A stretch of 64,000 bases of DNA. Origin: a virus (taxonomy: Duplodnaviria > Heunggongvirae > Uroviricota > Caudoviricetes). A program made the translations under genes and the position numbers. This document shows positions 5,512-17,781 of this stretch, in pieces. The notes beneath the pieces were generated by a model. That model saw nothing but the letters and a program-made list of their open reading frames with translations. It made no database searches and was not told the DNA's origin. How positions within the stretch are numbered: position 1 is the stretch's first letter; every line of letters starts with the position of its first letter. The stretch is taken from IMG/VR virus record IMGVR_UViG_3300035696_002535. One strand, given 5' to 3'.

Positions 5512-6165
5512 CTATTTCTTTTCCTCTTTGTTGCTTAGGTTTTCTTTCTTTTCTACTTTGAGCTCCACGGTAGGTTCTCCGGTACTCCTCTGACCAAGAG
5601 GATTTTCATCCATGTTAAAAAAATCAAGGAAACGCTTCATGCCAAAAATAGACTCTCCACCGATAAAAACCCAGCCTTCGAGGGCTTTTATATAATACAA
5701 AAAGACTCGATCACGAATATACAGTGTCCCAGTTTGATTGTCCAAACTGAATTGATCTCCAGTAAAAACTGAAGAGACAGCCGCCTGAAGATCGGCCAGA
5801 GCAGTGCCTACTACCCTTGATTTGTATTTTATTACCATGACAACGACGCACCCTTTTATCTCACTCATATTGTCAATGGTATATGAAACAGGAATACGAT
5901 AAGAGTGATTATAAGTCTCAGGGGTAAAAGTAGCTGCTTCGGCTATGTCTCTACTCAATATGACATCCCCTGACTCACAGAAATCTTTGAACGCTAAGGG
6001 AGCAGTCGGATATCCTGTAACAGTTCCATTTAACAAGGGATTGTTAGTCAAAGCCGTATCAAAAGCTGATTTAAACTTTGACCATAGACTAGGAGCAGGA
6101 GCACTCGGTTCTGAAAAAGAGCCACAGACGCACACCAACATAACCACAAGTAGCTTTTTGAACAT
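5512..6165 (-). CDS. putative lipoprotein, unknown function
   Basis: Signal peptide with a lipobox-like 'LVCVCGS'. Confidence 0.5.
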   Translation of the reverse strand: MFKKLLVVMLVCVCGSFSEPSAPAPSLWSKFKSAFDTALTNNPLLNGTVTGYPTAPLAFKDFCESGDVILSRDIAEAATFTPETYNHSYRIPVSYTIDNMSEIKGCVVVMVIKYKSRVVGTALADLQAAVSSVFTGDQFSLDNQTGTLYIRDRVFLYYIKALEGWVFIGGESIFGMKRFLDFFNMDENPLGQRSTGEPTVELKVEKKENLSNKEEKK

Positions 6166-6292
6166 TGGAACCCCAGTTAGTTAAAGTTATAAGTAAAGGT
6201 TGCGTAGGAATTCACAACAATGAACTTCAAAGGGCGCTAACCCTATGTGCTATTACATCTCTTTCTCATGCGATAACAACCCTACGCAACCT

Positions 6293-6688
6293 CTATGCTA
6301 TTGTTTTAAATGACTTCGTTATTTTCGCTATTGTGCCCTGTGAGAGTTCAAACTTTCTAGCCAATTCCCTTGTTGAGAGTCCAGCTTGAAACAGTTTTTT
6401 GATACTGTAATTACGGGATTCTCTGAACCAACGGAGTGATTTGATACCGTACTTCTTTCGCCAGCGAAGAACGGTTTGGCCGGAAACACCGTACTGCAGA
6501 CCGATCATGTCGTCTGTCTTCCATATCTTCTGGAGCCGAAGAAGTTGTTTTTGAGTTGGAATTTTCATAGGTTTTAAACCTCCTGTGCTTGTGTATCTGT
6601 TTGGTTGCTCATACATATTAAAAGTGGGACGAGGATGTTTAAGCCTCAGATAATTTAATATTGGGCTCATGGCATTCGTCCCACTCAT
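6293..6688 (-). CDS. helix-turn-helix DNA-binding protein (start trimmed to the internal Met to avoid overlapping the vWA gene)
   Basis: Two HTH-like segments: 'IGLQYGVSGQTVLRWRKKYGI' and 'LSTRELARKFELSQGTIAKI'. Confidence 0.4.
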   Translation of the reverse strand: MSGTNAMSPILNYLRLKHPRPTFNMYEQPNRYTSTGGLKPMKIPTQKQLLRLQKIWKTDDMIGLQYGVSGQTVLRWRKKYGIKSLRWFRESRNYSIKKLFQAGLSTRELARKFELSQGTIAKITKSFKTIA

Positions 6689-6701
6689 TTTATATCTCCT
6701 G

Positions 6702-7445
6702 TTAAAATGTGATCGGCTTCGAAGTTCCTCCGGTTCCCAACGCTTGGCTGGTTGACGAGACAGAAGCACTCGCAAACTGGGCGAACTTTGCCAAATTGTC
6801 CTTGGTGGCCTCGCCCATCTTTACAAACTGGTTAAGACCTGCTGCCTTGTGAAAATCTTCGCAGTACTTGATCACATCCTGTTCGTCCGAAGCCGCCACC
6901 AGGATGACGTTGATCGAATCAAGCTTCTCATCCTTTTTGATCTTGGTGATGGTCTTCCTGATCATGTCCGGATTCGCAACACGATTAATGTTGTTGGCTC
7001 CGTCCGTGATGATGAACAACACAGCATTGCAGGTGTAATCCATGCCGATGAGCTGTTCGCCGTAGGATTGGGTTGCTTCAAGGGACTCCTGGGTTGCTTC
7101 GTAAAGAGCCGTCAGTCCAGCAGGCTGGATGGATCCGTTGTAGTCGGTTTCATTGATGTTACGGAGCTCTTTGTAACCATGTATCTCTGTAATATCATCG
7201 TTGAAGCCAACTACCCGCATAGTAAGCTCCCCACTATTGGGATGCTTCTTACAGGCTCTCACGACTTCGACGCACATCTTCTCCATGTCGTCCTTGTAAT
7301 CCGTGATTGAAGGTGACATGTCGATAACAAGGGTGACAAGTGTGTACTTCGAGGCACCGAGGGTGGCTACGGTCTGGCCGCTGTACGTGTACTGGTGTAC
7401 AGTCTTGTGGGTTTCCATGGGCGTTAACCCCATCATTTTTGGCAT
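6702..7445 (-). CDS. von Willebrand factor A (vWA) domain protein
   Basis: MIDAS-like 'LVIDMSPSI' (DxSxS) plus 'LFIITDGANN', typical of vWA domains. Confidence 0.6.
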   Translation of the reverse strand: MPKMMGLTPMETHKTVHQYTYSGQTVATLGASKYTLVTLVIDMSPSITDYKDDMEKMCVEVVRACKKHPNSGELTMRVVGFNDDITEIHGYKELRNINETDYNGSIQPAGLTALYEATQESLEATQSYGEQLIGMDYTCNAVLFIITDGANNINRVANPDMIRKTITKIKKDEKLDSINVILVAASDEQDVIKYCEDFHKAAGLNQFVKMGEATKDNLAKFAQFASASVSSTSQALGTGGTSKPITF

Positions 7446-7487
7446 AATGTGCTCCTTAAGTAAAGGTTAATAGTTTAGTTTCAAAGC

Positions 7488-7736
7488 TTAGCTTTTAAGC
7501 TGTGCATCAACTGATACCTTTGAAGTTTTTTCAAAAACTTCTTCTAAGATACGTGATAGTCTGTTGCACTCGTTTTCCTTGTTACGAAGAACTTCGTCTT
7601 GTGAAAAAAGTCTCGCTTGCAAAGTTTCTACTTTTACTCTGTTTTCTTGAATTGCACATTTATAGCTTGTGAATGAAATAATACCAGCCAGAATCAGAAC
7701 TGCGACGCAAACGATGATTGCGATAATGACATCCAT
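7488..7736 (-). CDS. small membrane protein with coiled-coil tail
   Basis: N-terminal TM helix 'IIAIIVCVAVLILAGIISF'. Confidence 0.4.
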   Translation of the reverse strand: MDVIIAIIVCVAVLILAGIISFTSYKCAIQENRVKVETLQARLFSQDEVLRNKENECNRLSRILEEVFEKTSKVSVDAQLKS

Positions 7737-7758
7737 AGTGTACTCCTTAAGTAAAGAT

Positions 7759-8007
7759 TTATTCTGGAAATTTTGCTTCTTTCAAGTACTTTGCGGCAAT
7801 AAAATTTTTTGACAGTATATCTAGTAATTCCGGACTAATTTGTTGTTTCAGTTCTGATCGTGGTATGAAGCAACCTCCAGCTCGAACAATAGCACATTGT
7901 ATACTCTCAACAAAATCGTCACACCCATCACCAGAGTTGTCCATCTTTTCATAGAGTTGAACGAACTCATTTTTCTTAATCTCTTTTGGCAATTCTTTTG
8001 GAGCCAC
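7759..8007 (-). CDS. hypothetical protein
   Basis: ORF with an SD-like upstream context; no motif. Confidence 0.4.
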   Translation of the reverse strand: MAPKELPKEIKKNEFVQLYEKMDNSGDGCDDFVESIQCAIVRAGGCFIPRSELKQQISPELLDILSKNFIAAKYLKEAKFPE

Positions 8008-8023
8008 GATTTTGTTTCTTTCA

Positions 8024-8066
8024 GAAAAATTAGCCCCTAGTTGCCCAGGGGCTAACTAATTTTTAT
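8024..8066 (-). terminator. rho-independent terminator-like hairpin (bidirectional: A-run, 8-bp GC stem, T-run)
   Basis: aaaaat-TAGCCCCtagttgcccaGGGGCTA-actaattttta sits immediately 3' of the nicotinamidase gene. Confidence 0.55.
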
Positions 8067-8893
8067 GACACCTGCAAGAACTTGTCCGTCGTGGTGATCT
8101 TCATCCCCTTGGCTGTCATCTTGTTGATGAAGTCTTCCGCAGCCGCTTTTGCGATAGGGACCGGCGAACTTGCATCCTCAAGGTAGACGAACTTCTTGAC
8201 ATAGTCGTCCCCGAAGTGAGTCGCAATGTCCATCACAGTCGCCCGTACGCAATGGCTGGAAGCCTCCCCAGCGATGTAGATATACTTGGCATCTTTGAGA
8301 TACTGTACCAGTTTCATGTTGGGGCCAGTACCTTCGGCGTCATCGGGATCGAAGACTTCAGCCTTGAATGCGCTGTAATGCTCGGTGAACATATTCGAGC
8401 CCTTGGTCACGAAATCAACTACGGCGAACTGGGCTTCCCATTCCTGGAAAGCTTCGAACAAAACCGGTTCGACTTTGAACCCATTCGATCCGATAAGGCA
8501 GTGCATCGGCCAGATCATGAGAGTATAGTTACCCTGCTTCTTGAGAGTCTGCACGTATTTTTCCGAAATGGCTTGGAATCCCGGATTTGTGGCTCTCCAC
8601 TTGGCATTGGAACCTACGACATCCTCTTCCGGAATAGCAGTATAAGGATCTGGATGTTTTCCGTCCGAATTAATCCACCAGATGGGATGGGCGATGTGGA
8701 GGTATCTGTGCGCATCTTTTGTGCACACGATGCGGTCGATGATGTCTTTGTTCTTCGAGATAGCTTTTGCAAGACGTATCATGTCCTGATCAGCACCTGG
8801 AACAAAGAGACTTCCTGCGGAGTTGCAGAAATCAAACTGAGGGTCGATAGTCAGAAGGATAATCTGATCCTTCGTCTTCGCTGTGTCCGACAT
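8063..8893 (-). CDS. pncA: nicotinamidase / isochorismatase-family cysteine hydrolase (PncA-like)
   Basis: 'LTIDPQFDFCN' (catalytic Asp), 'DAHRYLHIAHP' (D/H metal site) and 'IAGEASSHCVRATV' (catalytic Cys in xxCV context). Confidence 0.6.
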   Translation of the reverse strand: MSDTAKTKDQIILLTIDPQFDFCNSAGSLFVPGADQDMIRLAKAISKNKDIIDRIVCTKDAHRYLHIAHPIWWINSDGKHPDPYTAIPEEDVVGSNAKWRATNPGFQAISEKYVQTLKKQGNYTLMIWPMHCLIGSNGFKVEPVLFEAFQEWEAQFAVVDFVTKGSNMFTEHYSAFKAEVFDPDDAEGTGPNMKLVQYLKDAKYIYIAGEASSHCVRATVMDIATHFGDDYVKKFVYLEDASSPVPIAKAAAEDFINKMTAKGMKITTTDKFLQVS

Positions 8894-8925
8894 AAGTACT
8901 CCTTATGGTTAAAGGTTGAATAAGG

Positions 8926-9192
8926 TCAGTCTGGGAACATTTCATCTAGCTCTTGGTCTACTCTGTCATAATCCTCTTTCGTAAGAACTTTGTCTGGCAA
9001 ACGAGTGAAGGAATCAATCATTTTTCCTTCAACTTCTTTTATTTCGTAAGTAAGAGAATCACCTTCTGCTATACCCAATACAGACAACTTATTTCTATCT
9101 ATCTGAGCAAATGAAATATGCCCTTCTTCATCAACAAGCTTTAGGTAACCAGTACCCTCGTCACACTTGTCGACATGGCCTATCCAAAGCAT
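8926..9192 (-). CDS. hypothetical protein
   Basis: 88 aa ORF preceded by the promoter-like motif at 9212-9226. Confidence 0.4.
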   Translation of the reverse strand: MLWIGHVDKCDEGTGYLKLVDEEGHISFAQIDRNKLSVLGIAEGDSLTYEIKEVEGKMIDSFTRLPDKVLTKEDYDRVDQELDEMFPD

Positions 9193-9211
9193 AGGAGCCC
9201 TCTTACCTTAT

Positions 9212-9226
9212 CAATATACTATCTTG
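9212..9226 (-). promoter_or_regulatory. conserved promoter-like motif caatatactatcttg (identical 15-mer at 23811-23825)
   Basis: Sits about 20 nt upstream of the minus-strand start at 9192. On the transcribed strand it reads CAAGATAGTATATTG and contains a -10-like TATATT. Confidence 0.4.
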
Positions 9227-9497
9227 TAATGGGCTGTCCACAATCTTTTTTACCCACAGGTTGATAAACAAACCACAAGATAACAATGACAGGCACAAAA
9301 ACCGTTTCGGACAGAATACATGCCCATACGATATTTCCAACACAAACTTTGTATTGAACGCAAGGATCTTTCTCGTCTGCGTTAATGAGACCGTACGGAG
9401 TAACCGTCTTTCCATTCACGTAAAGGTCATGGGCGCATCCAGACATCGTACAGGCCAGTAACGAGACGCACAGCAGCAAAGACACGAGCTTTTTCAT
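9219..9497 (-). CDS. small lipoprotein (start moved to 'MKKLVSLLLCVSLLACTMSGC')
   Basis: Signal peptide plus lipobox 'LLAC'. Confidence 0.45.
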   Translation of the reverse strand: MKKLVSLLLCVSLLACTMSGCAHDLYVNGKTVTPYGLINADEKDPCVQYKVCVGNIVWACILSETVFVPVIVILWFVYQPVGKKDCGQPITR

Positions 9498-9530
9498 AAG
9501 ACCCTCTTTTGAGTTAAAGTTATCTGTATT

Positions 9531-9547
9531 CAATATACTTTTTTAAC
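9531..9547 (-). promoter_or_regulatory. conserved promoter-like motif caatatacttttttaac
   Basis: About 35 nt upstream of the lipoprotein ATG; belongs to the same motif family as 15620, 28775 and 40627. Confidence 0.35.
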
Positions 9548-9594
9548 AATGCAGTTAATACATATTTTTATAATTATCTATTAATATCTGTTTC

Positions 9595-10578
9595 ATGTGT
9601 GTTACCCTGTTTAAGTACAAACAAAGGAGATATATGAACACTAAAAACATTCCAAAAAAAGATGTACTTGATCTTTATTCCTCTAGTAAGTCTGTTCTCT
9701 ACATAGCCAGCAAATATGGTGTGTCTACCAAACCAATATACAAGATACTAAAGGATAACAATGTTAAATTGAAAACCTATTCTGAGTCTGCTAGAAGATA
9801 TCCTTTAAATGAAAACTATTTTAACAAAATAGACACCCCTGAAAAAGCGTATTTTGTTGGACTCCTTTATGCAGATGGGTACAACAACAGAGCAAGAAAT
9901 TCTGTAATACTAAGTTTAGAAGAGCATGACAAATATTTGTTGGAGAGACTATCTTCTTTCATTTTTATAGGAAAAAGAGAGCTACTGTATATAAAACCAC
10001 CAAAAAGAAAGAAAAAAATCAACGGTAAATATATTAACACTAATCCGGCATATCGTTTGACCATAACTAGTAAAAATGTAAGTTCTGTTTTAAGGCAACA
10101 CGGAATGGATGAGCATAAAACAAAAAATCTTAAATTTCCTAAATGGCTCTCTCCAAAGCTACTTCGACATTTTATAAGGGGGTATTTTGATGGGGACGGA
10201 TACACAGGTATCAACAAAAAAAGAAAAGATGCAGAAGTTAGTATAATAGGTACCGAAAGTTTTATAAAAAACACAATCAAAGTAATAAAAACTAAACTTA
10301 ATATTACCGTTTTAAAGAAAAAGCACATATCCAAGGGTATTCTTTGTTTAAGAATTTGTGGTAACATACAGGTTTTAAAATTTCTTAATTGGATCTATAA
10401 AGATAGTTCTTTATTTCTAACAAGAAAACATGATAAATATAAAGAATTGCTGCAAATCAGATATAGCATAGAAAATAAGCCAAAAAAACTTTGTTCCTTA
10501 TGTAAAAATGAGCACTACGGTAAAGGACTGTGCTTTAGCCACTGGAGAAAAGCCCGTTATCGTGAACTTAAACTTTAA
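9595..10578 (+). CDS. LAGLIDADG homing endonuclease, free-standing, two-motif (single-chain) type
   Basis: Two LAGLIDADG motifs, 'FVGLLYADGY' and 'GYFDGDGY'. It is the only plus-strand gene inside a 40 kb minus-strand block, with a divergent low-complexity flank. Confidence 0.75.
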   Translation: MCVTLFKYKQRRYMNTKNIPKKDVLDLYSSSKSVLYIASKYGVSTKPIYKILKDNNVKLKTYSESARRYPLNENYFNKIDTPEKAYFVGLLYADGYNNRARNSVILSLEEHDKYLLERLSSFIFIGKRELLYIKPPKRKKKINGKYINTNPAYRLTITSKNVSSVLRQHGMDEHKTKNLKFPKWLSPKLLRHFIRGYFDGDGYTGINKKRKDAEVSIIGTESFIKNTIKVIKTKLNITVLKKKHISKGILCLRICGNIQVLKFLNWIYKDSSLFLTRKHDKYKELLQIRYSIENKPKKLCSLCKNEHYGKGLCFSHWRKARYRELKL

Positions 10579-11162
10579 ATAACACCGTCTTCAGCAAACC
10601 TTAAGAACACAAGATAAGCTTTGGCTCCTATTTTATTGTCAGGATTTTCTATAACAATTTTAACTTGTTTTCTATTTAAAAGAAAAATCTGGATGTCTTC
10701 AGATGATTCATTTTTTTCAAGGTTGATAGTACCTTCTGCTTCTACGAAAAACATGTATGTAGATTCATTTGTTAACCCAGCACTACTGAAAACAGGAGAT
10801 CTAGTTTTTCTTAATATTTTTTTTATCTTTAAACCTGTTTCTTCGAAAAGTTCTCTTTTGGCAGTCTCCTCAGGGGATTCCCCATAATCTATTAGTCCTG
10901 CGGCACACCCGTATTCATAGTCTTGAAGGGGGATACGAAACTCTTTGATAACAACAAGTCGTGGATTTGGATGGGGATTCGTGTTGTCTTCTGTATCAGG
11001 ATCATCCCCAGGGACTATCGCCACGATTACAACAGCGTTTTGATTCCCCGGGCGTTCAGCCGATATCCACTCTTTACGTTGCCCAGTCTTGTCTTCATAA
11101 ACGGTGCGCACCAGATTAAGGAAACGGCTTTCAGCTATGTTGTGTTTTTCTCGGATTTTCAT
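10575..11162 (-). CDS. NUDIX hydrolase
   Basis: A perfect Nudix box, 'GLIDYGESPEETAKRELFEETGL' (GX5EX7REUXEEXGU). Confidence 0.8.
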   Translation of the reverse strand: MKIREKHNIAESRFLNLVRTVYEDKTGQRKEWISAERPGNQNAVVIVAIVPGDDPDTEDNTNPHPNPRLVVIKEFRIPLQDYEYGCAAGLIDYGESPEETAKRELFEETGLKIKKILRKTRSPVFSSAGLTNESTYMFFVEAEGTINLEKNESSEDIQIFLLNRKQVKIVIENPDNKIGAKAYLVFLRFAEDGVI

Positions 11163-11441
11163 CTACATCCCCTTTGCGTAATCATATTTGTCATCTGAAC
11201 TGTCGAAAGCCTCACGGTGACCGTCCGCGTGTCCCTCATTATAACCGATGTTTAAGGCATATCGGATCAAAGCCCCGATGTCAGTCTTTTTGATGATCAG
11301 CAAGACCCCATTTTCTTCAGCTCGAGCTTTAATCCAGCTACCATATATTTTAATCCCATGCTTCTTCTGAGCATCCAATAAGATTCTATTTACTCGTCCT
11401 CTTGGCATAGCAATCTCTCCGCTAGTTAAAAAAACTACCAA
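11163..11441 (-). CDS. hypothetical protein
   Basis: 92 aa ORF packed between the NUDIX and macro genes. Confidence 0.4.
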   Translation of the reverse strand: MVVFLTSGEIAMPRGRVNRILLDAQKKHGIKIYGSWIKARAEENGVLLIIKKTDIGALIRYALNIGYNEGHADGHREAFDSSDDKYDYAKGM

Positions 11442-12051
11442 GATCAGAAGTGTCGACTATTGTCGTATCAGCCGTGGAATCAATGTCAGGAGGAATCACA
11501 ACATCTCCTAGATCACTGGAGATATCGACTTTTGATGTATCAGCTGTATCATTCTCGTACTTGGTCGGCCACCGGTCTTTTTGAGATGGAATGGTATAAA
11601 CATATGTATCAACCGTCATAACTTTTTTGATGATATTCTCAATTGTCAACCAATCACCCCCCGCGAGTACACAGCCTATCCTCGGCATGGCCACCGTCCA
11701 CCCATGTTCTAAAGCATGCTTGTATACATTAGTTAAACATTTTTCCACGGCATCATATCGTATTGGAGGAATTTTGCCTCTCCAACGGATCTCGTGCTGG
11801 GCAATCATATTCGCAACCATCACATCTTCTGCAAAAGGCACAAGTTGTATAGCGCCAAGTTCATATCCTCCTTCTGGCCCTTCAAGGGACCATTTCCGAT
11901 ATGCTTTTTCTGGATCTTTATTTTTCTTAGATAGAGCCATAACGAACCCAGCGCCCCACGCTCCGGGTACACAGTCGTTGCAGACGTGCGAGATTATAGC
12001 AGGCTTAACGATTGGTTCTGTTGCATCCCCGATAAGATAATGTAGTTCCAT
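11422..12051 (-). CDS. macro-domain protein (Poa1p/Macro_2-like ADP-ribose / ADP-ribose-1''-phosphate processing)
   Basis: 'IISHVCNDCVPGAWGAGFVMAL' matches the hhvCNc..mGaGiA signature of Poa1p-like macro domains. Confidence 0.5.
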   Translation of the reverse strand: MELHYLIGDATEPIVKPAIISHVCNDCVPGAWGAGFVMALSKKNKDPEKAYRKWSLEGPEGGYELGAIQLVPFAEDVMVANMIAQHEIRWRGKIPPIRYDAVEKCLTNVYKHALEHGWTVAMPRIGCVLAGGDWLTIENIIKKVMTVDTYVYTIPSQKDRWPTKYENDTADTSKVDISSDLGDVVIPPDIDSTADTTIVDTSDLGSFFN

Positions 12052-12052
12052 A

Positions 12053-12613
12053 TTAGCCTGCTTTCTGACTTGCCTCTAAAAATTCTAGATTCATTTCAAG
12101 ATGTTTTGATAGCCTCATTCTCTCCGGTCTGGTACCTACGTTAAAAATTGAGATACCCTTTTCTGCCGCTATCCGTAACGCCTGAGATGTGCCACCTTTA
12201 GTTACATACTTACTCCAAAACAGTACAGCAGAAACTGGAGTATTTAAATCTCTTCCCAATATCTGCAGACCATTTCTAGCATGTAAACATTTTGCTCCGT
12301 ATGATAAGTCAAACCATACCGGATGAAAATCTTCTGCCAAAGCAAAAGCCTGTTGTTTAATGGCATCGGGGATTTCTTTGCTCTTGAAATAGAGAGTGGA
12401 CTTGTTATCGTTAAATCCCTTCCAAGGAAGAAAGATTTCTTTCTCCCCTTTGCCTAGATCACAACCCTCTTCAAAAGCTTTGTCGGCACCATCTGCTCCG
12501 CCTGATCGGAGTACCCATCCTTTTTCCGCAAGTAGCTGACCGAGCTTTTTCATAATCTCAAGGACTTCAGAAGGCGTTTCCCTGGAGCCTATCCCGGCGT
12601 AATAGAGCTTCAT
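12053..12613 (-). CDS. DprA/Smf-like Rossmann-fold (SLOG superfamily) protein, stand-alone 186 aa
   Basis: 'YAGIGSRETP...VLRSGGADGADKAFEEG', 'CLHARNGLQILGR' and 'TKGGTSQALRIAAEKGISIF' follow the DprA Rossmann domain order (GSRxxS / SGxAxGxD / RNRiI / SGaLiTA). Confidence 0.55.
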   Translation of the reverse strand: MKLYYAGIGSRETPSEVLEIMKKLGQLLAEKGWVLRSGGADGADKAFEEGCDLGKGEKEIFLPWKGFNDNKSTLYFKSKEIPDAIKQQAFALAEDFHPVWFDLSYGAKCLHARNGLQILGRDLNTPVSAVLFWSKYVTKGGTSQALRIAAEKGISIFNVGTRPERMRLSKHLEMNLEFLEASQKAG

Positions 12614-12825
12614 TTATGTTTTTTCCTGCCTTTGGATTTCTTTTTTGTTTTAATTATTTCCCAATTTATAGGAAGACCCACATCATACAAACAGATGCTA
12701 GGAGCACCCCAGGCTTCTTTTGGACGTACAATACACGTTGCGTTACCACAAGCATCGCATTTATAGCGTTCCACTATGTCTCCTCCAGAACATTTGTTTT
12801 TACAAAGGGGGGGCTTGTTTTTCAA
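12610..12825 (-). CDS. small Zn-ribbon protein
   Basis: 'CKNKCSGGD...CDACGNATC' (CxxxC...CxxC). Confidence 0.35.
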   Translation of the reverse strand: MKNKPPLCKNKCSGGDIVERYKCDACGNATCIVRPKEAWGAPSICLYDVGLPINWEIIKTKKKSKGRKKHK

Positions 12826-12844
12826 AGCCCCCTTTGATAAGTGC

Positions 12845-13528
12845 TTATACCTTCGGAGCTGCTCCTGCCTTCAATGAAGCAAAAAGAGCCGAGCCCTTAG
12901 TCTTACCGAGTGCTTCGTCGGCCTGTTGTGCAAGCGATTTGGACGGTTCGGCTTGCTTGACCATTTCCGAGGAAACACGAAGCTGTTCATCGAGTTTCCG
13001 GCGTCTCTCCTTAAACCTCTGGACAGCCGAGCCAGATTTACCTGTATCGACATTGACTAGTGACTTGTTGGCATCTGTCACTGCCTGCTGGGTTTTCATG
13101 ATCTCCAGGTCGTTCTGGCATTCCCGCATATGATCTTCCAATGCGGCTTTAGAATCTTCGAACTGCGTGAGCAGGCCTTCTTGCTGAGTCATGGCACCCT
13201 TCAAGACGTCGAGTTTTGCCTGGAACCCTTCGACTTCCTTGCAAAGCTGTTCGGCCAGTTTATCGGTGGCATCGGTATGCTTGGCAATGAGAGCCTGGGC
13301 CTTATTCGTATCATTGTTGATCTGATCCTGAAGATCTTTCATGTCGTCGGTCAATTGACTCATACGGGCTTTGATATGCCCCAGGTTCTCCATGACCGTT
13401 TGCATATCGTGCTTCATGTCTTCCATGTCGTTTTTTGCGAATTCGACGGGGTCAGAATTTTCGAGACTTTCGGCGGCTTTTCTGTCAGTTACCCGAAAGA
13501 AACCTTTGAGTGCGCCAAGGAGTGCCAT
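12845..13528 (-). CDS. pspA: PspA/IM30 (Vipp1) family protein, bacterial ESCRT-III-like
   Basis: The N-terminus 'ENSDPVEFAKNDMEDMKHDMQTVMENLGHIKA' matches the PspA_IM30 start (EDPekmleqairdmeedl). Long coiled-coil throughout. Confidence 0.7.
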   Translation of the reverse strand: MALLGALKGFFRVTDRKAAESLENSDPVEFAKNDMEDMKHDMQTVMENLGHIKARMSQLTDDMKDLQDQINNDTNKAQALIAKHTDATDKLAEQLCKEVEGFQAKLDVLKGAMTQQEGLLTQFEDSKAALEDHMRECQNDLEIMKTQQAVTDANKSLVNVDTGKSGSAVQRFKERRRKLDEQLRVSSEMVKQAEPSKSLAQQADEALGKTKGSALFASLKAGAAPKV

Positions 13529-13558
13529 AAATAATTCCCCTTTCTAGGGAGTTAAGGT

Positions 13559-14173
13559 TTATTTGTGAAAAAGTTCCACTTCGCTGTTTTTGACCATACA
13601 ACCGTACCACGTTTCGACGTAGCCTTTTACAGTGTCTCCCTTCCAATCCATGAGACAGTAATTGTTACCGCCGTTCTCATCATTGGTGTAGTACTCGCCA
13701 AGGCTGCAGATCCCTTCTCCATCGGTAGTGCTCTCAAAATTGACACCGTAGGAAGAAGTCTGCCTATCCCAGGTAACAGCGTGTTTCCCGGAGGCATCTG
13801 TTACTTGAGCCTCGAATCGGGCTACAAAATCTTTACCGGCTTCATCGAAGAAGGCCAATAGAGGACACTGAGGCTGGCTTGTGGGAGCAGCATAAACAGG
13901 TCCTGATGCTCCAATGTCTTTGAAGAATACATAGGCTTCAAAGGCCTCCTTCATCGTTTTGATGAGAAGCAAATAAAGATCGTGAGCGGCATTGGGGGCT
14001 TCGACCACGTAACCGTAATATTTGAAGACCCCATTAGGTTCCGAATACGTGCGGACTTCCCTGATAGGAAAATCCACCGACAGCTTGTTATACTCTGCCT
14101 GCGTCTGCAGATCAGAGAGGGAGACTAAATCTCCCACCTGGAATCCTGCGAAATCTGCGATTTTTTTTATCAT
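13559..14173 (-). CDS. uncharacterised protein, paralog family A (paralog of 28801..29391)
   Basis: The C-terminus 'NNYCLMDWKGDTVKGYVETWYGCMVKNSEVELF' aligns with 'QNLCLIDWKGDNKTGKLEVWYGQKVKKREVRLF' of ORF 28801..29391. The N-terminal halves also align. The ATGA start overlaps the upstream gene's stop. Confidence 0.5.
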   Translation of the reverse strand: MIKKIADFAGFQVGDLVSLSDLQTQAEYNKLSVDFPIREVRTYSEPNGVFKYYGYVVEAPNAAHDLYLLLIKTMKEAFEAYVFFKDIGASGPVYAAPTSQPQCPLLAFFDEAGKDFVARFEAQVTDASGKHAVTWDRQTSSYGVNFESTTDGEGICSLGEYYTNDENGGNNYCLMDWKGDTVKGYVETWYGCMVKNSEVELFHK

Positions 14174-14778
14174 GCTATCAACACCACAAGAAGAATAATA
14201 CCGCCAACTACCACAGCAGTACCAGCACATACACCAACATAAAAAAGAGTTCCATGATGGTGATATGTAACGGGGATTGGTTGATTATATGGCTGGCTAG
14301 CATTTGCCACTATAGCGTCTGTGGCCGCAAGAGCGATCCACAACCCCAAAGGATTGTAATACCCATAGCATCCGTCATGGAAAACAACAGTGTAAGAAAC
14401 TCCACCGCGCATCACTGTGGAAGGAATGTAAGCTGGTCGTACTGCAGGCTGAGACGTAAACTTGTTATTGAATGCGGCCTGGGCTGAGGCTTGAGAATTA
14501 AAAGCTTTTGTTCCCATGGCATCAGACTTCTGCATGCTGGCATTCAGGGCACTTGGAGCAGTTGCCACAGGCTTTGAGGCCGAGGCAGCTGTAGGTGACG
14601 ACACAGTGGAAGTGCTGGATCTGGAACTCGACATACTTGGTGCCGGACTTGCCTTAGGAGATGAGAAGCTACTGGATCGAGAACTTGAAAAACCACCAGA
14701 TGAACCTCCCCTGGCAAGCAAATCCGACGTACCGAGCAACAGCAAACCGCAGACTAGGACTGAAAGAAAACGTTTCAT
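14170..14778 (-). CDS. secreted Ser/Ala-rich protein with C-terminal membrane anchor
   Basis: Signal peptide 'MKRFLSVLVCGLLLLG'; long Ser-rich low-complexity segment; C-terminal hydrophobic 'GTAVVVGGIILLVVLIA'. Confidence 0.5.
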   Translation of the reverse strand: MKRFLSVLVCGLLLLGTSDLLARGGSSGGFSSSRSSSFSSPKASPAPSMSSSRSSTSTVSSPTAASASKPVATAPSALNASMQKSDAMGTKAFNSQASAQAAFNNKFTSQPAVRPAYIPSTVMRGGVSYTVVFHDGCYGYYNPLGLWIALAATDAIVANASQPYNQPIPVTYHHHGTLFYVGVCAGTAVVVGGIILLVVLIA

Positions 14779-14824: not shown

Positions 14825-15574
14825 TCATGCTTTTTCGAAAAAGATCTCGTCTCCCTTGAGGATGATGTTGATTGGGTCGACTCCATATCCGACTACTTTT
14901 CTCGGGATACTAACCCTGCCATCGTACCATACCTTCAAATTGGGATTGAGCTTGCCGGAATGAATTTTGATCTTGGTTGGATCAACCGTCTGTCCTGGTT
15001 TCCATCCAATGGCTTTGGTAATATCGCCTGGGATCTGTATCCTGCGAACATAGCGGCTCTTGCGAACGAGCCTCACACCCGTTCCAGAGATGTTAGGATG
15101 TGTGCCGTCGTCAAGAAGATCAGGCAGAGGAAGTTGCGAGTCGTCTTTTCGGTCTGTATCTGTCGAAACGACACTGGCTGATCCGGCTGTTCCAGGCTTG
15201 GATAATACCGCCGTAGCCGTCGAAGAAGATATCGGTGAGGGAGAAGCTGAAGCTGGACTCAGGGCGCTGAGATCACTAGGGCTAAATGCCCTCTGGTCAC
15301 GATCCAGATAATCGCCTGCATCCTTCCAGTGAGGGCGATATAGCATGGCGACTCTGTTTCCTCCATTGACGTCGATGGGCTCGGAAACATAATCCTGAAG
15401 CATGGAATCTTTGCCTATGTTGGAGCGAAGCCAATCTCGTACATCCCGATTGCGGATATCCATTTTTAAAGTTGTTTTCTTGATTGCGTTTCCGATATCC
15501 ACTGAGGTAAAGAGTTTCTCCGCAGTGACGAATTCCTGCACCGCTTCTCTGATCGTATCGTCCTTAGGGCACAT
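14825..15574 (-). CDS. hypothetical protein (start moved to 'MCPKDD', which is preceded by AGAGGAGGT)
   Basis: A strong SD 9 nt upstream of the internal ATG; the promoter-like motif lies further upstream. Confidence 0.45.
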   Translation of the reverse strand: MCPKDDTIREAVQEFVTAEKLFTSVDIGNAIKKTTLKMDIRNRDVRDWLRSNIGKDSMLQDYVSEPIDVNGGNRVAMLYRPHWKDAGDYLDRDQRAFSPSDLSALSPASASPSPISSSTATAVLSKPGTAGSASVVSTDTDRKDDSQLPLPDLLDDGTHPNISGTGVRLVRKSRYVRRIQIPGDITKAIGWKPGQTVDPTKIKIHSGKLNPNLKVWYDGRVSIPRKVVGYGVDPINIILKGDEIFFEKA

Positions 15575-15619: not shown

Positions 15620-15635
15620 TAATATACTTTTTTGG
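15620..15635 (-). promoter_or_regulatory. conserved promoter-like motif taatatacttttttgg (identical 16-mer at 28775-28790)
   Basis: About 50 nt upstream of the ATG at 15574. On the transcribed strand it reads CCAAAAAAGTATATTA. Confidence 0.4.
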
Positions 15636-15674
15636 AAAATCGAATCCAAAAGAAAAATAAAATTATTTTTAATT

Positions 15675-15708
15675 AAAAAGGCACCCTATTTCTAGAGTGC
15701 CTTTTTCC
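15675..15708 (-). terminator. rho-independent terminator hairpin (A-run / GGCAC...GTGCC stem / T-run), bidirectional
   Basis: aaaaaGGCACcctatttctagaGTGCCtttttcc lies 36 nt 3' of the RRM gene stop. Confidence 0.55.
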
Positions 15709-15743: not shown

Positions 15744-16121
15744 TCATCTACGTCCGTAGTTGCTTCCGCCGCCACCTGCGCCACCATATGGCTTGTTGCC
15801 ACGAGGTTGCTGAGGATGTGCCTCATTGACCTTAAGAGCACGCGGAGGCGAGCCCATTTCTTTTCCATCGAGCTTGAGAGCCTCATCGAGGTTCTCCAAC
15901 TCGATTTCAACGAAACAGAAGCCTTTTGATCTGCCACTGTCACGGTCTGTGATGATATTCACGGTCTTGACCGTTCCAACGCCTGCAAAAAAGTTCCTGA
16001 GATCATCCTCTGTTGCAGCCCAGGGAATGTTCCCCACATACAGTTTCTTTAACACAAAACCCTCCACAGAAAAGTGAAAAATAAACGGCTTTAACACCGC
16101 CCCGTCCAGTTTGGACGACAC
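15744..16121 (-). CDS. RRM-type RNA-binding protein with Gly-rich tail (cyanobacterial Rbp / CIRP-like)
   Basis: RNP2 'LYVGNI', RNP1 'KGFCFVEI', C-terminal 'GGAGGGGSNYGRR'. Confidence 0.8.
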   Translation of the reverse strand: MSSKLDGAVLKPFIFHFSVEGFVLKKLYVGNIPWAATEDDLRNFFAGVGTVKTVNIITDRDSGRSKGFCFVEIELENLDEALKLDGKEMGSPPRALKVNEAHPQQPRGNKPYGGAGGGGSNYGRR

Positions 16122-16941: not shown

Positions 16942-17781
16942 TCAGATAGTCTGATAGCATACTGCTTGTTCTGACTTTTTTCCTACCACAAGATAACCAC
17001 AGAAGCCACTACCTCGAGCTTGCTGGACGGTCTTAACTGAATTTTGCTTTTTATTTTCTTCTGGTTGCTCTTTTAAAGTTACGTTTCTCTCGAACAACTC
17101 TCTGGTCATCTCATTCCAAGTAGGTTGTTCTAATTTAACTTTATTATCCGTTATTGATTTAGCAACATCAAGGCATAGCAGGCTATTAATTTGGAGGTTA
17201 TACTCTGTTATTGGCTGTGTTTTCGTGGTTAGTCCCATTTTTGTTAAGCGATGATGTAGTCTCCATTCAGAATCCTTATATAGATCCTTAACTACACTAG
17301 GCCACTTAATAGTTTCAAGATCCTTGTTTGGGCGGGACTTGACTATATTTCTTGCCTTATTTGGGCGAGACTTAACTATATCTTTTGCTTTCGTGGATAT
17401 GTATTCATTAGTAAACAAAGATTCAACTTGTTTTGGAGATGTTATAAACCATTCATTTCCAAGACTGTCAGGGATATTTTGTCTCATTTCCGTTAAACAA
17501 TTGTGTAGCCACTTTTCTAGCTGAGAAGGGTAGTCTGTGTGTATTATTAAACCTATTATAGGCTGTTCATGGTAGCCCATAGCCAAGCTTTTTGCTCGCA
17601 TTTTAACATCCCCAGATAAACCTATCTTACATTCCCAAATGTCCTCCTCAATATAATGAGTTAATTCACGATTCGTAGGATAATAGTAAACATAGACACA
17701 ACCAGATCCCTCGCCAACTTCTTTTTCAATTTGAACACCCTTTATGCACGACACACTTATAGACTCCTTTTTCAGGTACAC
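16942..17781 (-). CDS. T5orf172/GIY-YIG-like domain protein with internal 11-aa tandem repeat
   Basis: 'GCVYVYYYP...CKIGLSGDVKMRAKSL' resembles the T5orf172 (MUG113) GIY-YIG-like fold. There is a 'KSRPNKARNIV/KSRPNKD' direct repeat. Confidence 0.4.
   Translation of the reverse strand: MYLKKESISVSCIKGVQIEKEVGEGSGCVYVYYYPTNRELTHYIEEDIWECKIGLSGDVKMRAKSLAMGYHEQPIIGLIIHTDYPSQLEKWLHNCLTEMRQNIPDSLGNEWFITSPKQVESLFTNEYISTKAKDIVKSRPNKARNIVKSRPNKDLETIKWPSVVKDLYKDSEWRLHHRLTKMGLTTKTQPITEYNLQINSLLCLDVAKSITDNKVKLEQPTWNEMTRELFERNVTLKEQPEENKKQNSVKTVQQARGSGFCGYLVVGKKSEQAVCYQTI

Follow-up and report, generated by a model that had tools for sequence, protein, structure and literature searches.

The window, the whole 64,000-nucleotide stretch of phage DNA analysed here, is best explained as that arm of an uncultivated huge phage which carries accessory (host-interaction) genes, a reading of the whole to which we give somewhat better than even chances. 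Within it, a gene unit joining a PspA/IM30-like protein to ADP-ribose (ADPr)-processing enzymes is best explained as two modules with different histories, a triad and a variable slot, because the triad is kept while the genes 3' of PspA differ between lineages. The huge phages LR745208 and LR756511 ('uncultured phage' genomes of 485-595 kb) are distant relatives and carry homologs of the window's PncA, VWA, PP2C, kinase, PcfJ-like, IF-1 and NadE proteins.

Gene Content of the Unit and Its Surroundings

The first-pass annotation had described eight minus-strand ORFs, a LAGLIDADG ORF and a downstream nicotinamidase-like ORF, all of which are present where it placed them, and most of its assignments to NAD+/ADP-ribose enzyme families hold in profile searches, PDB matches and conserved residues. 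The features are, in the direction of transcription:

15744-16121: RRM gene, single-gene unit upstream (Pfam RRM_1 8e-16)
15675-15706, minus strand: intrinsic terminator hairpin and T-run closing the RRM unit (RNAfold)
15621-15660, minus strand: candidate sigma-70-like phage promoter, by motif; -10-like AGTATATT at 15621-15628, TTGG-type -35-like element upstream
14825-15574, minus strand: predicted first gene of the unit, 249 aa; ATG at 15574, preceded by GGAGG
14170-14778, minus strand: Ser-rich protein, triad member 1; N-terminal signal-like segment, C-terminal hydrophobic helix
13559-14173, minus strand: novel beta-rich protein, triad member 2; motif CL[IL]DWKGD...WYG
12845-13528, minus strand: PspA/IM30-like (ESCRT-III superfamily) protein, triad member 3; Pfam PF04012, AF2 and Foldseek, borderline
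12610-12825, minus strand: short, Cys-rich ORF of 71 aa (54 aa if it starts internally); 4-nt overlap with the SLOG start
12053-12613, minus strand: stand-alone SLOG-fold protein, N4 gp14-like/'DprA-like' phage family (phrog_768)
11422-12051, minus strand: SCO6735/Bt_1257-type, ALC1-like macrodomain (residues 1-150) with acidic, Thr/Asp-rich C-terminal tail
11163-11441, minus strand: ORF of only 81-92 aa, one stop codon away from the in-frame NUDIX
10575-11162, minus strand: NUDIX hydrolase, putative ADP-sugar/ADP-ribose pyrophosphatase type (Pfam NUDIX 1.6e-12)
9595-10578, plus strand: free-standing LAGLIDADG homing endonuclease
8926-9220, minus strand: promoter-like motif (9213-9220) and 88-aa ORF preceding PncA, separate unit
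8063-8893, minus strand: putative nicotinamidase, PncA/Pnc1-like isochorismatase-fold amidase; catalytic and metal residues conserved
8025-8057, minus strand: intrinsic terminator after PncA; 13-bp stem, -21.7 kcal/mol, then UUUUU

Neither the small Cys-rich ORF nor the 88-aa ORF has a family match, and the Ser-rich protein has no match in Pfam.

A Conserved Triad and a Variable Slot

The PspA/IM30 call passes the Pfam PspA_IM30 threshold narrowly, scoring 36.8 bits over residues 26-221 where the gathering score is 33.9. The AF2 model forms a helical hairpin (27-82/86-155), and its top 8 Foldseek PDB matches are all Vipp1/PspA at a borderline E of ~1e-3. By sequence, a profile of 10 family members failed to match any solved PspA or Vipp1, and hhalign against E. 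coli PspA returned a probability of 2.7%; the assignment is thus borderline. The triad of membrane protein, beta-rich protein and PspA is conserved at 51-78% identity in lineages L012-L017 and L022-L026 and in three further contigs, with homologs of the Ser-rich protein at the equivalent position in L012-L016, L024 and L025; in every related lineage examined, it is this triad that anchors the synteny. The same strand block contains a second membrane pair, spanning 28801-30931:

29417-30931, minus strand: SPFH/Band-7 protein (Band_7 7e-27)
28801-29391, minus strand: paralog of the PspA-adjacent beta-rich protein (~31% identity; motif CLIDWKGD...WYG common to both)

Downstream of PspA, sister lineages encode PncB, a radical SAM protein and NadE, L015 encodes HE and NadE, another lineage carries CoaC/CoaB, and elsewhere unknown genes follow; L016, the closest other lineage, has an unrelated 365-aa gene in this slot. 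Contigs with 99.97-100% identity to the window are the only ones in which the SLOG-macro-NUDIX trio comes after PspA. Since the trio is lineage-specific and the slot holds an unrelated gene in L016 and CoA genes in another lineage, the juxtaposition of PspA and ADPr genes is attributed to a variable cofactor slot. Hence, the PspA module appears to be a conserved cassette in its own right that is not functionally fused to the ADPr genes, and the proposal that co-transcription with PspA signifies dual protection of NAD+ and membranes is weakened, as the trio follows PspA in this lineage alone.

The coupling of PspA and NAD genes is unproven, though NAD-related genes come after PspA in three lineages of different arrangement, which could point to a genuine functional tie and not a neutral slot. 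The model of the first-pass annotation is an integrated counter-defence operon selected for co-expression, in which SLOG, macro and NUDIX would destroy or sponge immune signals derived from ADPr, PncA and NadE would rebuild NAD+, and PspA would repair membranes under attack by abortive-infection effectors. Such an operon, which we consider unlikely, is favoured by probable co-transcription of the eight-ORF run, by NAD+ genes following PspA in three or more lineages that differ in arrangement and by the SPFH-paralog membrane pair in the strand block, but CoA genes or unrelated unknown genes also fill the slot, and PncA (~1.7 kb downstream) and NadE (~20 kb upstream) each lie in other transcription units.

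The Predicted Transcription Unit

That the eight ORFs look like one transcript had been deduced from gaps of 0-30 nt. This spacing is nothing special, being generic over the whole 40-kb strand block (median gap 22 nt over 51 minus-strand junctions, 31 of them ≤30 nt), while the single transcript itself is plausible on account of a promoter-like motif and two strong terminators. The motif AGTATATT occurs in 13 copies against 3.4 expected; 11 of the 13 lie on the minus strand, mostly directly 5' of genes and with an upstream (A)TGTTG element in common. One copy (15621-15628) comes right after the terminator hairpin between the RRM gene and the next gene (-19.5 kcal/mol, 14-bp stem, then UUUUU in RNAfold), and the next is not reached before 9532. 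A sigma-70 consensus scan found no excess of sites. Because the enriched motif shares a -35-like element, terminators flank the run, and stops and starts overlap or abut, a 9-gene unit from about 15.63 to 10.58 kb, made up of the eight ORFs and one gene upstream, is probably a single transcript. Contig L001, identical in sequence, supplied the gene call from which the length of this 249-aa first gene is taken; the gene has no match in Pfam or NCBIfam, and a weak homolog adjoins the PARP-like gene of LR756511.

Generic spacing also suits the view that these are independently acquired accessory genes lying side by side in a dense co-directional array, as do the mosaic nature of that array (three homing endonucleases plus T5orf172), the varying neighbours of PspA and the absence of the trio from all other macro loci: neither SLOG nor the window-type NUDIX occurs within 8 kb in any of 80 IMG/VR viral loci with the window's macro type. 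A complete lack of functional relationship nevertheless appears quite unlikely, given that three of the six NAD/ADPr genes fall inside four adjacent gene slots (P ~0.04 for random placement among 94 genes), that ADPr is both macro product and NUDIX substrate, that start/stop overlaps suggest translational coupling, and that DNA-virus genomes combine Macro, SLOG and Nudix more frequently than expected by chance (PMC9503650).

The ADP-Ribose Genes of the Slot

In the two-module interpretation, the slot of the window lineage is occupied by the trio. Its SLOG assignment is confirmed by a full-length match to phrog_768 (4e-56), and the protein stands alone rather than being a true DprA recombination mediator. 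Pfam LDcluster4 and DprA reach no further than its N-terminal ~50 aa, with scores under the cut-off. SLOG domains are gcADPR sensors in Thoeris, and phage SLOG/Macro/Nudix proteins were predicted to process ADPr derivatives and counter ADPr signals (PMC9503650), which speaks for the integrated operon; against it, tblastn finds this SLOG family in 1424 phage records (45-49% identity), many of them N4-like.

The macrodomain had been called Poa1p-like, which is not sustained: Poa1p aligns along some 50 aa with E 0.24-0.43, versus 2e-37 for Bt_1257 (2afc/2fg1), 8e-32 for SCO6735 (5e3b) and 1e-9 for ALC1. By these matches it is of the SCO6735/Bt_1257-type, ALC1-like class of predicted DNA-thymidine/protein-Glu de-ADP-ribosylases. 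N25, Q85 and G126-G132 align with Asn27, Gln85 and Gly128, which SCO6735 requires to strip DarT-made thymidine-ADPr and PARP1 Glu-ADPr (PMC9411070). The substrate of this subclass in the sole biochemical study is macromolecular ADPr on DNA or protein, not cyclic signals (PMC9411070), a further point against the integrated operon. A precedent for the clean-up role proposed below is the phage macrodomain AdfM, which overcomes DarTG2 (PMC13309987).

The Poa1p label would fit an RNA repair role, in which an ADP-ribose-1''-phosphate phosphatase clears by-products of a 2'-phosphotransferase in tRNA repair together with a nearby RNA ligase. The window has an RNA ligase at 22532-23587, Streptomyces phages carry the same macro type near RNA ligase, PNK and tRNAs, and the macro's phrog_335 match is labelled 'phosphatase'; yet Tpt1/KptA, 2H and PNK were not found in the window, an RNA ligase lies near just 2 of 80 macro loci, and the Poa1p scores given above make this role highly improbable.

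The NUDIX box GLIDYGESPEETAKRELFEETGL is intact, and the best PDB matches (NUDT5 9e-12, NudE 2e-7, ADPRases) bear out the ADP-ribose kind rather than MutT (17 bits). In a strain variant (L003, 99.97% nucleotide identity), a Ser codon replaces the stop, and 11163-11441 and NUDIX form one 277-aa protein. The inserted LAGLIDADG gene (phrog_4645 1e-54; Pfam LAGLIDADG_3 and Hom_end) is indeed such an endonuclease, convergent with NUDIX with a 4-nt overlap. As the NUDIX and PncA scores fall below the NCBIfam equivalog cut-offs, the substrates of both are predicted from best matches and conserved residues alone.

Predicted NAD+ Recycling and the PARP

PncA scores 8e-13 with NCBIfam PncA, below cut-off, is likewise under the Pfam cut-off and matches Pnc1 in the PDB at 2.5e-6; its D17/K164/C215 and D60/H62/H131 correspond to the full catalytic and metal sets of yeast Pnc1, in agreement with the nicotinamidase call. 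Its inclusion in one gene set is correct as to position, ~1.7 kb downstream, but it belongs to a separate predicted 2-gene unit, and its conserved neighbours in huge phages are a VWA-PP2C-kinase set, not ADPr genes. LR756511 and LR745208 carry homologs of it at 47-49% identity. Pfam domain sets confirm two further enzymes:

18973-20397, minus strand: WGR-PARP_reg-PARP ADP-ribosyltransferase, predicted NAD+ consumer (three Pfam domains)
33425-35314, minus strand: glutamine-dependent NAD+ synthetase NadE (Pfam CN_hydrolase and NAD_synthase)

The former matches PARP1/PARP2 at 4e-19 with an H-Y-E-like set (H352, Y387/388, E455), and NadE reaches 104.5 bits with TIGR00552 (cut-off 63.65). PncB and NadD, suspected among the unannotated ORFs, were not recovered, there being no NAPRTase or CTP_transf_like match anywhere in the 64-kb window: Pfam matches none of the ORFs 31851-32387, 32402-33103 and 33018-33428, and gives 38548-39180 a sub-threshold TYW3 match alone. 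In sister lineages, bona fide PncB and NadE come straight behind the PspA triad, the window NadE being 52-56% identical to theirs. These comparisons support the view that the phage lineage invests in nicotinamide-to-NAD+ recycling, with predicted PncA and NadE here and PncB and NadE in the sisters. The route differs, as proposed, from the published NARP1 and NARP2 pathways, and also from NARP3.

Five activities within 27 kb on a single strand could also make up a self-contained writer, eraser and recycler, in which the PARP would mark phage or host targets with ADP-ribose, DNA breaks being one example of a site, the marks would be taken off by the macrodomain, and NUDIX would dispose of free ADP-ribose. 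PncA would clear nicotinamide, which inhibits PARP as its product, and NadE would refill NAD+. We regard this account, PncA and NadE roles included, as possible but rather doubtful. SCO6735 also de-modifies auto-ADP-ribosylated PARP1 (PMC9411070), PARP is tied to NAD+ synthesis in jumbo phages, which carry pncB-nadD-nadE and in many cases also PARP (PMC11662467), and PARP-like and PncA-like genes, present in just 16 and 7, respectively, of 50,697 phage records, co-occur in LR756511 and LR756500. However, the PARP lies ~7 kb from the macrodomain, outside the predicted unit, most phages of the collection that have PARP show no PncA or NadE match and vice versa, and the PncB-NadE sister lineages show no PARP in 10-kb flanks.

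Proposed Mechanism and Implications

Family assignments and synteny as documented above allow the activities, the single transcript and their physiological purpose to be conjectured as follows. One transcript would begin at the candidate phage promoter (sigma-70-like, near 15.62 kb) and extend as far as the LAGLIDADG gene that converges on it at 10.58 kb. Its first module would comprise the Ser-rich membrane protein, the novel beta-rich protein and the PspA/IM30 ESCRT-III-like protein; the second, in the slot after PspA, would be an ADP-ribose clean-up cassette in the window lineage. The macrodomain may hydrolyse ADP-ribose off DNA thymidine (a DarT2-type lesion) and/or acidic-residue protein adducts, products of the phage's own WGR-PARP included, yielding free ADP-ribose, which the NUDT5/NudE-like NUDIX would cut into AMP and ribose-5-phosphate. 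The gp14-like SLOG protein may bind or cleave an ADP-ribose-derived nucleotide, the least certain step. From its own two-gene unit, PncA would convert nicotinamide to nicotinate, and the NadE encoded 20 kb upstream would turn NaAD into NAD+ by amidation; sister lineages encode a PncB of their own, and NadD would presumably come from the host or an unseen genome part.

Toolkits of ADP-ribose/NAD genes are already known from jumbo phages, and the idea of a counter-defence role is not new: it was proposed for phage SLOG/Macro/NADAR/Nudix sets (Iyer 2022; PMC9503650) and for Preiss-Handler 'NAD-jumbo phages' with PARP (Li 2024; PMC11662467). In the mechanism outlined here, NAD+ would stay up and ADP-ribose adducts and derivatives would be kept down during infection, a net effect that, if true, would serve counter-defence, pay for those phage enzymes that consume NAD+, or do both.

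Gene array and transcription units

The minus-strand array at 8063-14778, which the first-pass annotation had described as an NAD+/ADP-ribose gene set joined to a PspA protein and possibly serving counter-defence, is a real feature whose annotation is mostly correct, with one wrong subclass. All of the ORFs claimed for it, comprising eight minus-strand ORFs, an opposite-strand LAGLIDADG ORF and the ORF at 8063-8893, are present in the window. The genes of this array and the NAD+-related genes further upstream are as follows:

Genes of the array and NAD+-related genes of the same strand block
8063-8893, minus strand: nicotinamidase (PncA/Pnc1-like), with catalytic and metal residues
9595-10578, plus strand: LAGLIDADG endonuclease, mobile-endonuclease type
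10575-11162, minus strand: NUDIX hydrolase with intact box, best matches to NUDT5, NudE and ADPRases
11422-12051, minus strand: macrodomain (Bt_1257, 2e-37; SCO6735, 8e-32)
12053-12613, minus strand: SLOG protein (phrog_768, 4e-56, residues 2-177)
12845-13528, minus strand: PspA-like protein (Pfam PspA_IM30, end to end)
13559-14173, minus strand: beta-rich protein of the PspA triad
14170-14778, minus strand: Ser-rich membrane protein of the PspA triad
18973-20397, minus strand: PARP (WGR, PARP_reg and PARP domains, all above Pfam gathering scores)
33425-35314, minus strand: two-domain, glutamine-dependent NadE (CN_hydrolase, 3.5e-13; NAD_synthase, 1e-35)

The proposal that tight spacing betrays a single transcript holds only in part. 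Such spacing is generic across the minus-strand block (0.7-40.6 kb), which comprises approximately 52 co-directional genes with a median gap of 22 nt, gaps of at most 30 nt at 31 of 51 junctions and 12 overlaps, whereas a promoter motif and flanking terminators, as predicted from sequence, are consistent with one mRNA. The motif, AGTATATT, was recognized by inspection of the longer intergenic regions and occurs in 13 copies against 3.4 expected, a number reached by none of 100 shuffles. Eleven copies are located on the minus strand, mostly immediately 5' of start codons, and the copies have in common an (A)TGTTG element approximately 17-20 nt farther upstream. The full promoter-like pattern, (A)TGTTG-N17-20-aAGTATATT, is about four-fold enriched and is found 5' of many window genes; examples among the 11 minus-strand sites are 9213, 9532, 15621, 16137, 17785, 23812, 28776, 36839 and 40627. 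The AGTATATT sites presumably act as sigma-70-like phage promoters, and the pattern could mark promoters of an early or middle class in this phage. A scan of the window with generic sigma-70 and terminator consensus sequences did not reveal promoter enrichment.

One motif copy (15621-15628, minus strand) follows the terminator of an RRM gene and precedes the true ATG (15574) of the gene at 14825-15574; the terminator, a hairpin of -19.5 kcal/mol with a U-run, closes the single-gene RRM unit 5' of the motif. The next copies are situated at 9532-9539 and 9213-9220 with none in between, and a second strong terminator (-21.7 kcal/mol) lies 3' of the PncA-like gene. Because the motif copies and the two terminators fall at these positions, the most economical map predicts a unit of nine genes between 15.62 and 10.58 kb, composed of the eight previously noted ORFs and one upstream gene and ending against the convergent homing-endonuclease gene, while PncA is assigned to a separate two-gene unit.

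Macrodomain, NUDIX hydrolase and SLOG protein

The wrong subclass concerns the macrodomain, which had been termed Poa1p-like. Matches to this type of ADP-ribose-1''-phosphate phosphatase are confined to about 50 residues (E 0.24-0.43), and the protein belongs instead to the SCO6735/Bt_1257 subclass of ALC1-like macrodomains. It shares 45-52% identity over the macro fold with Bacteroides Bt_1257 and Streptomyces coelicolor SCO6735, and N25, Q85 and the GCVLAGG motif (with the GCxLAGG glycine) are invariant in alignment A4, so that equivalents of the Asn, Gln85 and Gly residues of both proteins are kept; the phage protein differs from them by an extra acidic tail of ~60 aa. SCO6735 strips DarT-made ADP-ribose off DNA thymidine as well as Glu-linked ADP-ribose off PARP1, and requires Asn27, Gln85 and Gly128 (PMC9411070). 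Phage macro and NADAR antitoxin mimics directed against DarTG are by now proven (PMC13309987, PMC11825919), among them AdfM, a phage macrodomain able to defeat DarTG2 (PMC13309987). In contrast to DarG2 and AdfM, the window protein features Gln at the position of the catalytic Lys and is therefore, by sequence, not a DarG2-like AdfM.

IMG/VR scans with the single PARP and the single macro protein returned no relatives, while a scan with the macro alignment yielded 80 loci of this macro type, many of them on contigs >200 kb. A SLOG protein or a NUDIX of the window type was found within 8 kb in none of the 80. Some NUDIX-box ORF is present in 11, in eight of these about 2 kb upstream and on the same strand. 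In the latter IMG/VR loci (L035, L037, L041, L043, L054, L056, L058 and L070) the ORF, with the box GY[LI]..E......IRELKEE, precedes the macro gene by ~2-2.5 kb on the same strand, and this arrangement in eight contigs is a different, recurrent macro-NUDIX association.

The NUDIX assignment is sound: the box GX5EX7REUXEEXGU is intact (GLIDYGESPEETAKRELFEETGL, residues 89-111), and the best PDB matches are all ADP-sugar or ADP-ribose hydrolases, with human NUDT5 aligning from residue 7 (9e-12). A MutT-type 8-oxo-dGTPase, named in the first-pass annotation as the adverse case, is negligible, its 17.4 bits falling far short of the cut-off (148). Since all NCBIfam equivalog scores are below their cut-offs (NudE, 41 of 169 bits; YffH/AdpP, 39 of 79.6; NudF, 33.5 of 248), ADP-ribose or an ADP-sugar is given here as the putative substrate. 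The small ORF 5' of the NUDIX gene is in the same frame (10575-11441, minus strand) with one stop codon between the two. In a 99.97%-identical strain (contig L003, 2310-3143) a Ser codon replaces this stop and yields one 277-aa protein, which is why the 81-aa segment may be an N-terminal domain of the NUDIX enzyme, or else readthrough of the stop may occur.

The SLOG protein, matched by phrog_768 over its full length, belongs to a 'DprA-like' or N4 gp14-like family with tblastn matches in 1424 phage records, and contains the glycine-rich nucleotide-binding motifs SGGADGAD and KGGTS. Matches to DprA and LDcluster4 cover only the N-terminal nucleotide-binding motif of ~50 residues, and a true DprA, with its Rossmann-like domain of about 210 aa, fails the thresholds (Pfam, 24.2 against 29.6, residues 6-50 only; TIGR00732, 19 against 191). 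As judged from these scores, the protein is a stand-alone SLOG protein, as originally annotated, and not a recombination mediator. Its closest homolog in a cultured phage, gene 198 of Bacillus phage AgentSmith (locus L010, 5602-6519; 47% identity), encodes a SLOG domain fused to an N-terminal domain of ~130 aa with a GSNxxGxHGKGAA motif and no Pfam match; a second SLOG paralog is encoded two genes upstream.

Nicotinamidase, NadE and PARP

The nicotinamidase, for which an alignment with archaeal PncA was also obtained, keeps all catalytic and metal-site residues, though it scores below curated thresholds (Pfam Isochorismatase, 20 against 27; NCBIfam PncA, 48.6 against 174): D17, K164 and C215 align with the Asp-Lys-Cys triad of yeast Pnc1, and D60, H62 and H131 with its Asp-His-His site. 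The Pnc1 equivalents we take to be D8, K122 and C167, and D51, H53 and H94. On this basis the annotation of 8063-8893 as a nicotinamidase is accepted. PncA is followed in the window by genes for a VWA-like protein, PP2C and a kinase-like protein, in the same order as in LR756511 and LR745208, two huge 'uncultured phage' genomes (loci L006, 20001-32460, and L009, 20001-27235); as gene order indicates, PncA thus has conserved neighbours of its own. These genes, within 673-8893 on the minus strand, are:

Genes 3' of the nicotinamidase gene
6702-7445, minus strand: VWA-like protein
3479-4366, minus strand: PP2C
673-2385, minus strand: kinase-like protein

The VWA and kinase Pfam matches are below threshold. 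By its composition the set resembles the TerY-P-like triad defined in PMC11090510, which is phage-borne here, whereas TerY-P-like modules have been reported as anti-phage defences.

NadE and the WGR-PARP were confirmed. Both NadE domains exceed their Pfam thresholds and the protein passes TIGR00552 (104.5; cut-off 63.65), while the three-domain PARP displays an H-Y-E-like motif, in which H352 and Y387/388 align to PARP1 and the Glu, by inspection, is E455 in YNDELI, in a register that is ambiguous by one residue. On the contrary, the suggestion that PncB and NadD might be found among the unannotated ORFs at 33018-33428, 38548-39180 and 31851-32387 failed, as Pfam recognised nothing in these beyond a weak match to TYW3. 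Moreover, Pfam scans of essentially all window ORFs of at least ~130 aa detected no NAPRTase, NadD/NMNAT, NAMPT, PRPS-like, PnuC or NadR domain, a CTP_transf_like domain was found in none of the scanned ORFs, and tblastn with a PncB from the sister lineages (other phage contigs with the PspA triad) gave no match in the window. Of a complete Preiss-Handler set (PncB, NadD and NadE), only NadE was found in the visible 64 kb. The domains of NARP1 (Adps and Namat), NARP2 (Nampt and Nmnat) and NARP3 (PnuC and NadR) were likewise not found in the Pfam scans, in agreement with the earlier claim of a route unlike NARP1 and NARP2.

The PspA triad and its variable downstream slot

The PspA-like protein passes PF04012 with 36.8 bits (gathering score 33.9), residues 26-221 covering profile positions 23-216 of 220, and PF04012 is precomputed on 10 of 10 homologs. 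An AlphaFold (AF2) model (pLDDT 74) predicts helices at 27-82, 86-155 and 163-192 and a long helical hairpin, and the best eight Foldseek matches in the PDB are all Vipp1 or PspA (E ~1e-3, TM ~0.5). Sequence searches of solved structures, including one with a 10-member family profile, did not recover PspA or Vipp1, and comparison with the E. coli PspA sequence gave nothing convincing. On the strength of the Pfam score and the predicted fold, the PspA membership claimed earlier is retained, with moderate confidence, as that of a divergent PspA/IM30-like protein. With ~225 aa, a full Pfam match, a predicted hairpin with C-terminal helices and Vipp1/PspA as top structural matches, it resembles bacterial PspA/IM30/Vipp1 of the ESCRT-III superfamily, from which it differs in being very divergent and phage-encoded. 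Its two fixed partners are proteins not known from Psp systems, and PspB, PspC and PspF were not detected within the window. The beta-rich partner, modelled with database homologs, has a confidently predicted fold with no PDB relative.

Neither the PspA-like protein nor the 204-aa protein upstream of it matched any of 50,697 phage records; homologs (51-74% and 52-78% identity, respectively) reside on metagenome contigs only. When IMG/VR was scanned with the PspA alignment, no relatives were recovered, and one metagenome scan with it found four loci only. In all contigs whose upstream flank was available, with the exception of L017, the order Ser-rich membrane protein, beta-rich protein and PspA is kept, while the genes that follow differ:

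Genes following PspA in the window and in related contigs
SLOG, macro, small ORF, NUDIX: only contigs essentially identical to the window
Small ORF, PncB, radical SAM, NadE: L012, L013, L014, L025, L026 and two further contigs
Homing endonuclease, NadE: L015
CoaC-like flavoprotein and CoaB (DFP): a 148-kb contig, with a CoaD-CoaE fusion upstream
Unrecognised genes: L016, L017 and one further contig

Because the order of the triad is kept while the downstream genes vary by lineage, the triad is, as judged from synteny, a conserved cassette and the slot behind it a variable cofactor island with NAD, CoA, ACP or ThyX genes. PncB of the sister lineages is a true NAPRTase (TIGR01514, 437 bits), and no NadD was seen in the available flanks of the PncB-bearing lineages; the CTP_transf_like gene of sister lineages is a CoaD-CoaE fusion rather than NadD. 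Between PncB and NadE the sister lineages keep a radical SAM gene, whose MoaA/viperin-like matches are weak (L012, 12237-13073; L025, 4995-5837; L026, 13478-14419). In addition, CoA biosynthesis genes surround the triad in related huge phages (CoaD-CoaE fusion and CoaB/CoaC-like genes; P0019 contig and L026, 5255-6421), and L026 also encodes ACP and ThyX. In these phages, a broader island of nucleotide-cofactor genes seems to be present.

Since the window NadE is akin (52-56% identity) to the NadE following PspA and PncB in sister lineages and yet lies 20 kb upstream, the present gene order is probably explained by rearrangement, not design. The postulated functional coupling of PspA to the NAD+/ADP-ribose genes is, on sequence grounds, not supported beyond adjacency, the content of the slot varying by lineage. 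The reading ranked first, and held to be somewhat probable, is that of an NAD+/ADP-ribose toolkit juxtaposed with a PspA cassette. An integrated dual-protection operon, which partly overlaps with this reading and with which the predicted single mRNA is consistent, is regarded as unlikely. Even more doubtful is a wider proposal, in which the triad would be a phage-specific membrane system with a functional tie to nucleotide-cofactor supply, its slot always holding NAD+, ADP-ribose or CoA genes owing to their joint action with it, and the lineage would possess a fourth, deamidated route of NAD+ reconstitution (PncA, PncB, host NadD and NadE), with macro and NUDIX returning ADP-ribose to AMP and ribose-5-phosphate to feed PRPP, which together would defeat NAD+-depleting immunity.

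Genomic setting

At the nucleotide level, the stretch 8.0-15.0 kb has no megablast match among 50,697 phage records. Several ENA and JGI metagenomes contain contigs that match parts of the window at 99.97-100% identity, and an identical PspA is encoded on a 110-kb contig. LR745208 and LR756511 (485-595 kb) encode relatives of PncA (47-49% identity), VWA, PP2C, the kinase-like protein, the PcfJ-like protein, IF-1 and NadE, as well as a weakly similar PARP. Further genes of the window encode three free-standing homing endonucleases, a T5orf172-domain protein, a sigma-like protein, IF-1 and HPr, and a glycosylation cluster spans 21 kb. Owing to these huge-phage relatives and this gene content, the window is concluded to be, as far as sequence tells, the accessory arm of a huge phage.

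Other genes of the window
4363-4905, minus strand: Ogg-type 8-oxoguanine glycosylase
15744-16121, minus strand: RRM_1 RNA-binding protein with its own promoter motif and terminator
16942-17781, 17896-18798 and 35331-36620, minus strand: other mobile-endonuclease-type genes (T5orf172/MUG113, GIY-YIG-NUMOD3, HNH)
22532-23587, minus strand: RNA ligase with PHA02142 OB domain
31610-31870, minus strand: PTS HPr homolog
37892-38551, minus strand: DNA/RNA non-specific endonuclease
39192-40619, minus strand: PcfJ-like protein, 41% identical to that of LR756511
40785-62381, plus strand: co-directional glycosylation cluster, 21 kb
63608-63889, minus strand: IF-1 homolog

The glycosylation cluster encodes GT2, GT10 (fucosyltransferase-like), GT17, NAD-dependent epimerase/dehydratase-family, aminotransferase, radical SAM and methyltransferase proteins. 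Four mobile-endonuclease-type genes lie within 27 kb, and in related contigs LAGLIDADG genes occupy differing sites beside NadE or PspA; this clustering and variable position suggest active intron-less homing in an endonuclease-rich region.

Proposed activities and comparison with known systems

On the basis of the family assignments, conserved catalytic residues and synteny observed here, the following activities are proposed. The macrodomain would free ADP-ribose from thymidine in DNA, as in DarT2-type lesions, from protein adducts on acidic residues, those made by the phage PARP included, or from both, and NUDIX would convert ADP-ribose to AMP and ribose-5-phosphate. SLOG may bind or cleave a nucleotide derived from ADP-ribose, in line with predictions for phage SLOGs. 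In the recycling of nicotinamide to NAD+, PncA would catalyze the first step and NadE the last, and PncB and NadD would come from the host or from other parts of the genome. Such a toolkit could counter host immunity in the form of DarTG or NADase systems, and just as well it could serve the NAD+ consumers of the phage itself, namely PARP and the NAD-dependent epimerases of the glycosylation cluster. A reading of PARP and its counterparts as ADP-ribose writer and eraser, which partly overlaps with the favoured reading of a juxtaposed toolkit, is considered possible, if somewhat improbable.

The counter-defence idea is largely anticipated, since two studies precede it. Iyer, Burroughs, Anantharaman and Aravind (2022) described SLOG, Macro, NADAR and Nudix domains as enriched and co-occurring in large/jumbo phages, predicted that phage SLOG, Macro and Nudix proteins process ADP-ribose derivatives, and gave NadV, NadM and NadR as phage NAD+ synthesis genes (PMC9503650); PncA, NadE and PspA did not turn up in a term search of its text. 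With this network the window has in common that SLOG, Macro and Nudix genes stand alone in an early/accessory part of a large phage. It is devoid of NADAR and DUF4326, has a macrodomain of the SCO6735/Bt_1257 subclass, and places SLOG next to macro, an adjacency seen at none of the 80 other viral loci that carry this macro type. Li et al. (2024) reported 'NAD-jumbo phages', whose clusters encode salvage or Preiss-Handler (pncB-nadD-nadE) enzymes and which also have PARP and LPS-sugar genes, and proposed for them a role against NAD+ depletion (PMC11662467); a term search of this second paper gave no nicotinamidase, Nudix, macro ADP-ribose branch or PspA. Common to both are the huge-phage context, NadE, PARP, PncB-NadE clusters (in sister lineages of the window), NAD-dependent sugar epimerases with a glycosylation cluster in the same genome, and a suggested role against NAD+ depletion. 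However, PncB and NadD are absent from the visible 64 kb, so that the window does not carry all genes of a NAD-jumbo phage there, whereas it adds a nicotinamidase and the NUDIX/macro ADP-ribose branch; furthermore, its relatives stem from ENA/JGI environmental metagenomes, and theirs from animal guts.

NARP1 and NARP2 (bioRxiv 10.1101/2024.02.11.579819) and NARP3 (PMC13464706) rely on other enzymes. The presumed aim, restoration of NAD+ from nicotinamide and ADP-ribose, is shared, but the route implied by the window is deamidated (Nam-NA-NaMN-NaAD-NAD+) and would need PncB and NadD encoded by the host or by other parts of the genome, and ADP-ribose would undergo degradation by NUDIX, not pyrophosphorylation. 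Novelty lies in the combination of a nicotinamidase, an SCO6735-type macrodomain, a NUDT5-like NUDIX and a PspA triad recurrently found beside cofactor genes.

Should the enzymes have the activities proposed, this phage lineage would recycle the two products of immune NADases, via a deamidated Preiss-Handler route and an ADP-ribose hydrolase. This deamidated route differs from the experimentally shown NARP1, NARP2 and NARP3 and is so far an in silico prediction for jumbo phages only. Likewise, the SCO6735-type macrodomain, if it acts in this way, would constitute a second class of anti-DarT enzyme in phages, distinct from DarG2. Apart from the NAD question, the most original element is the phage PspA/ESCRT-III-like protein locked to two uncharacterised partners: absent from cultured-phage databases and recurring beside cofactor biosynthesis genes, the triad offers a handle on the management of host membranes by huge phages.
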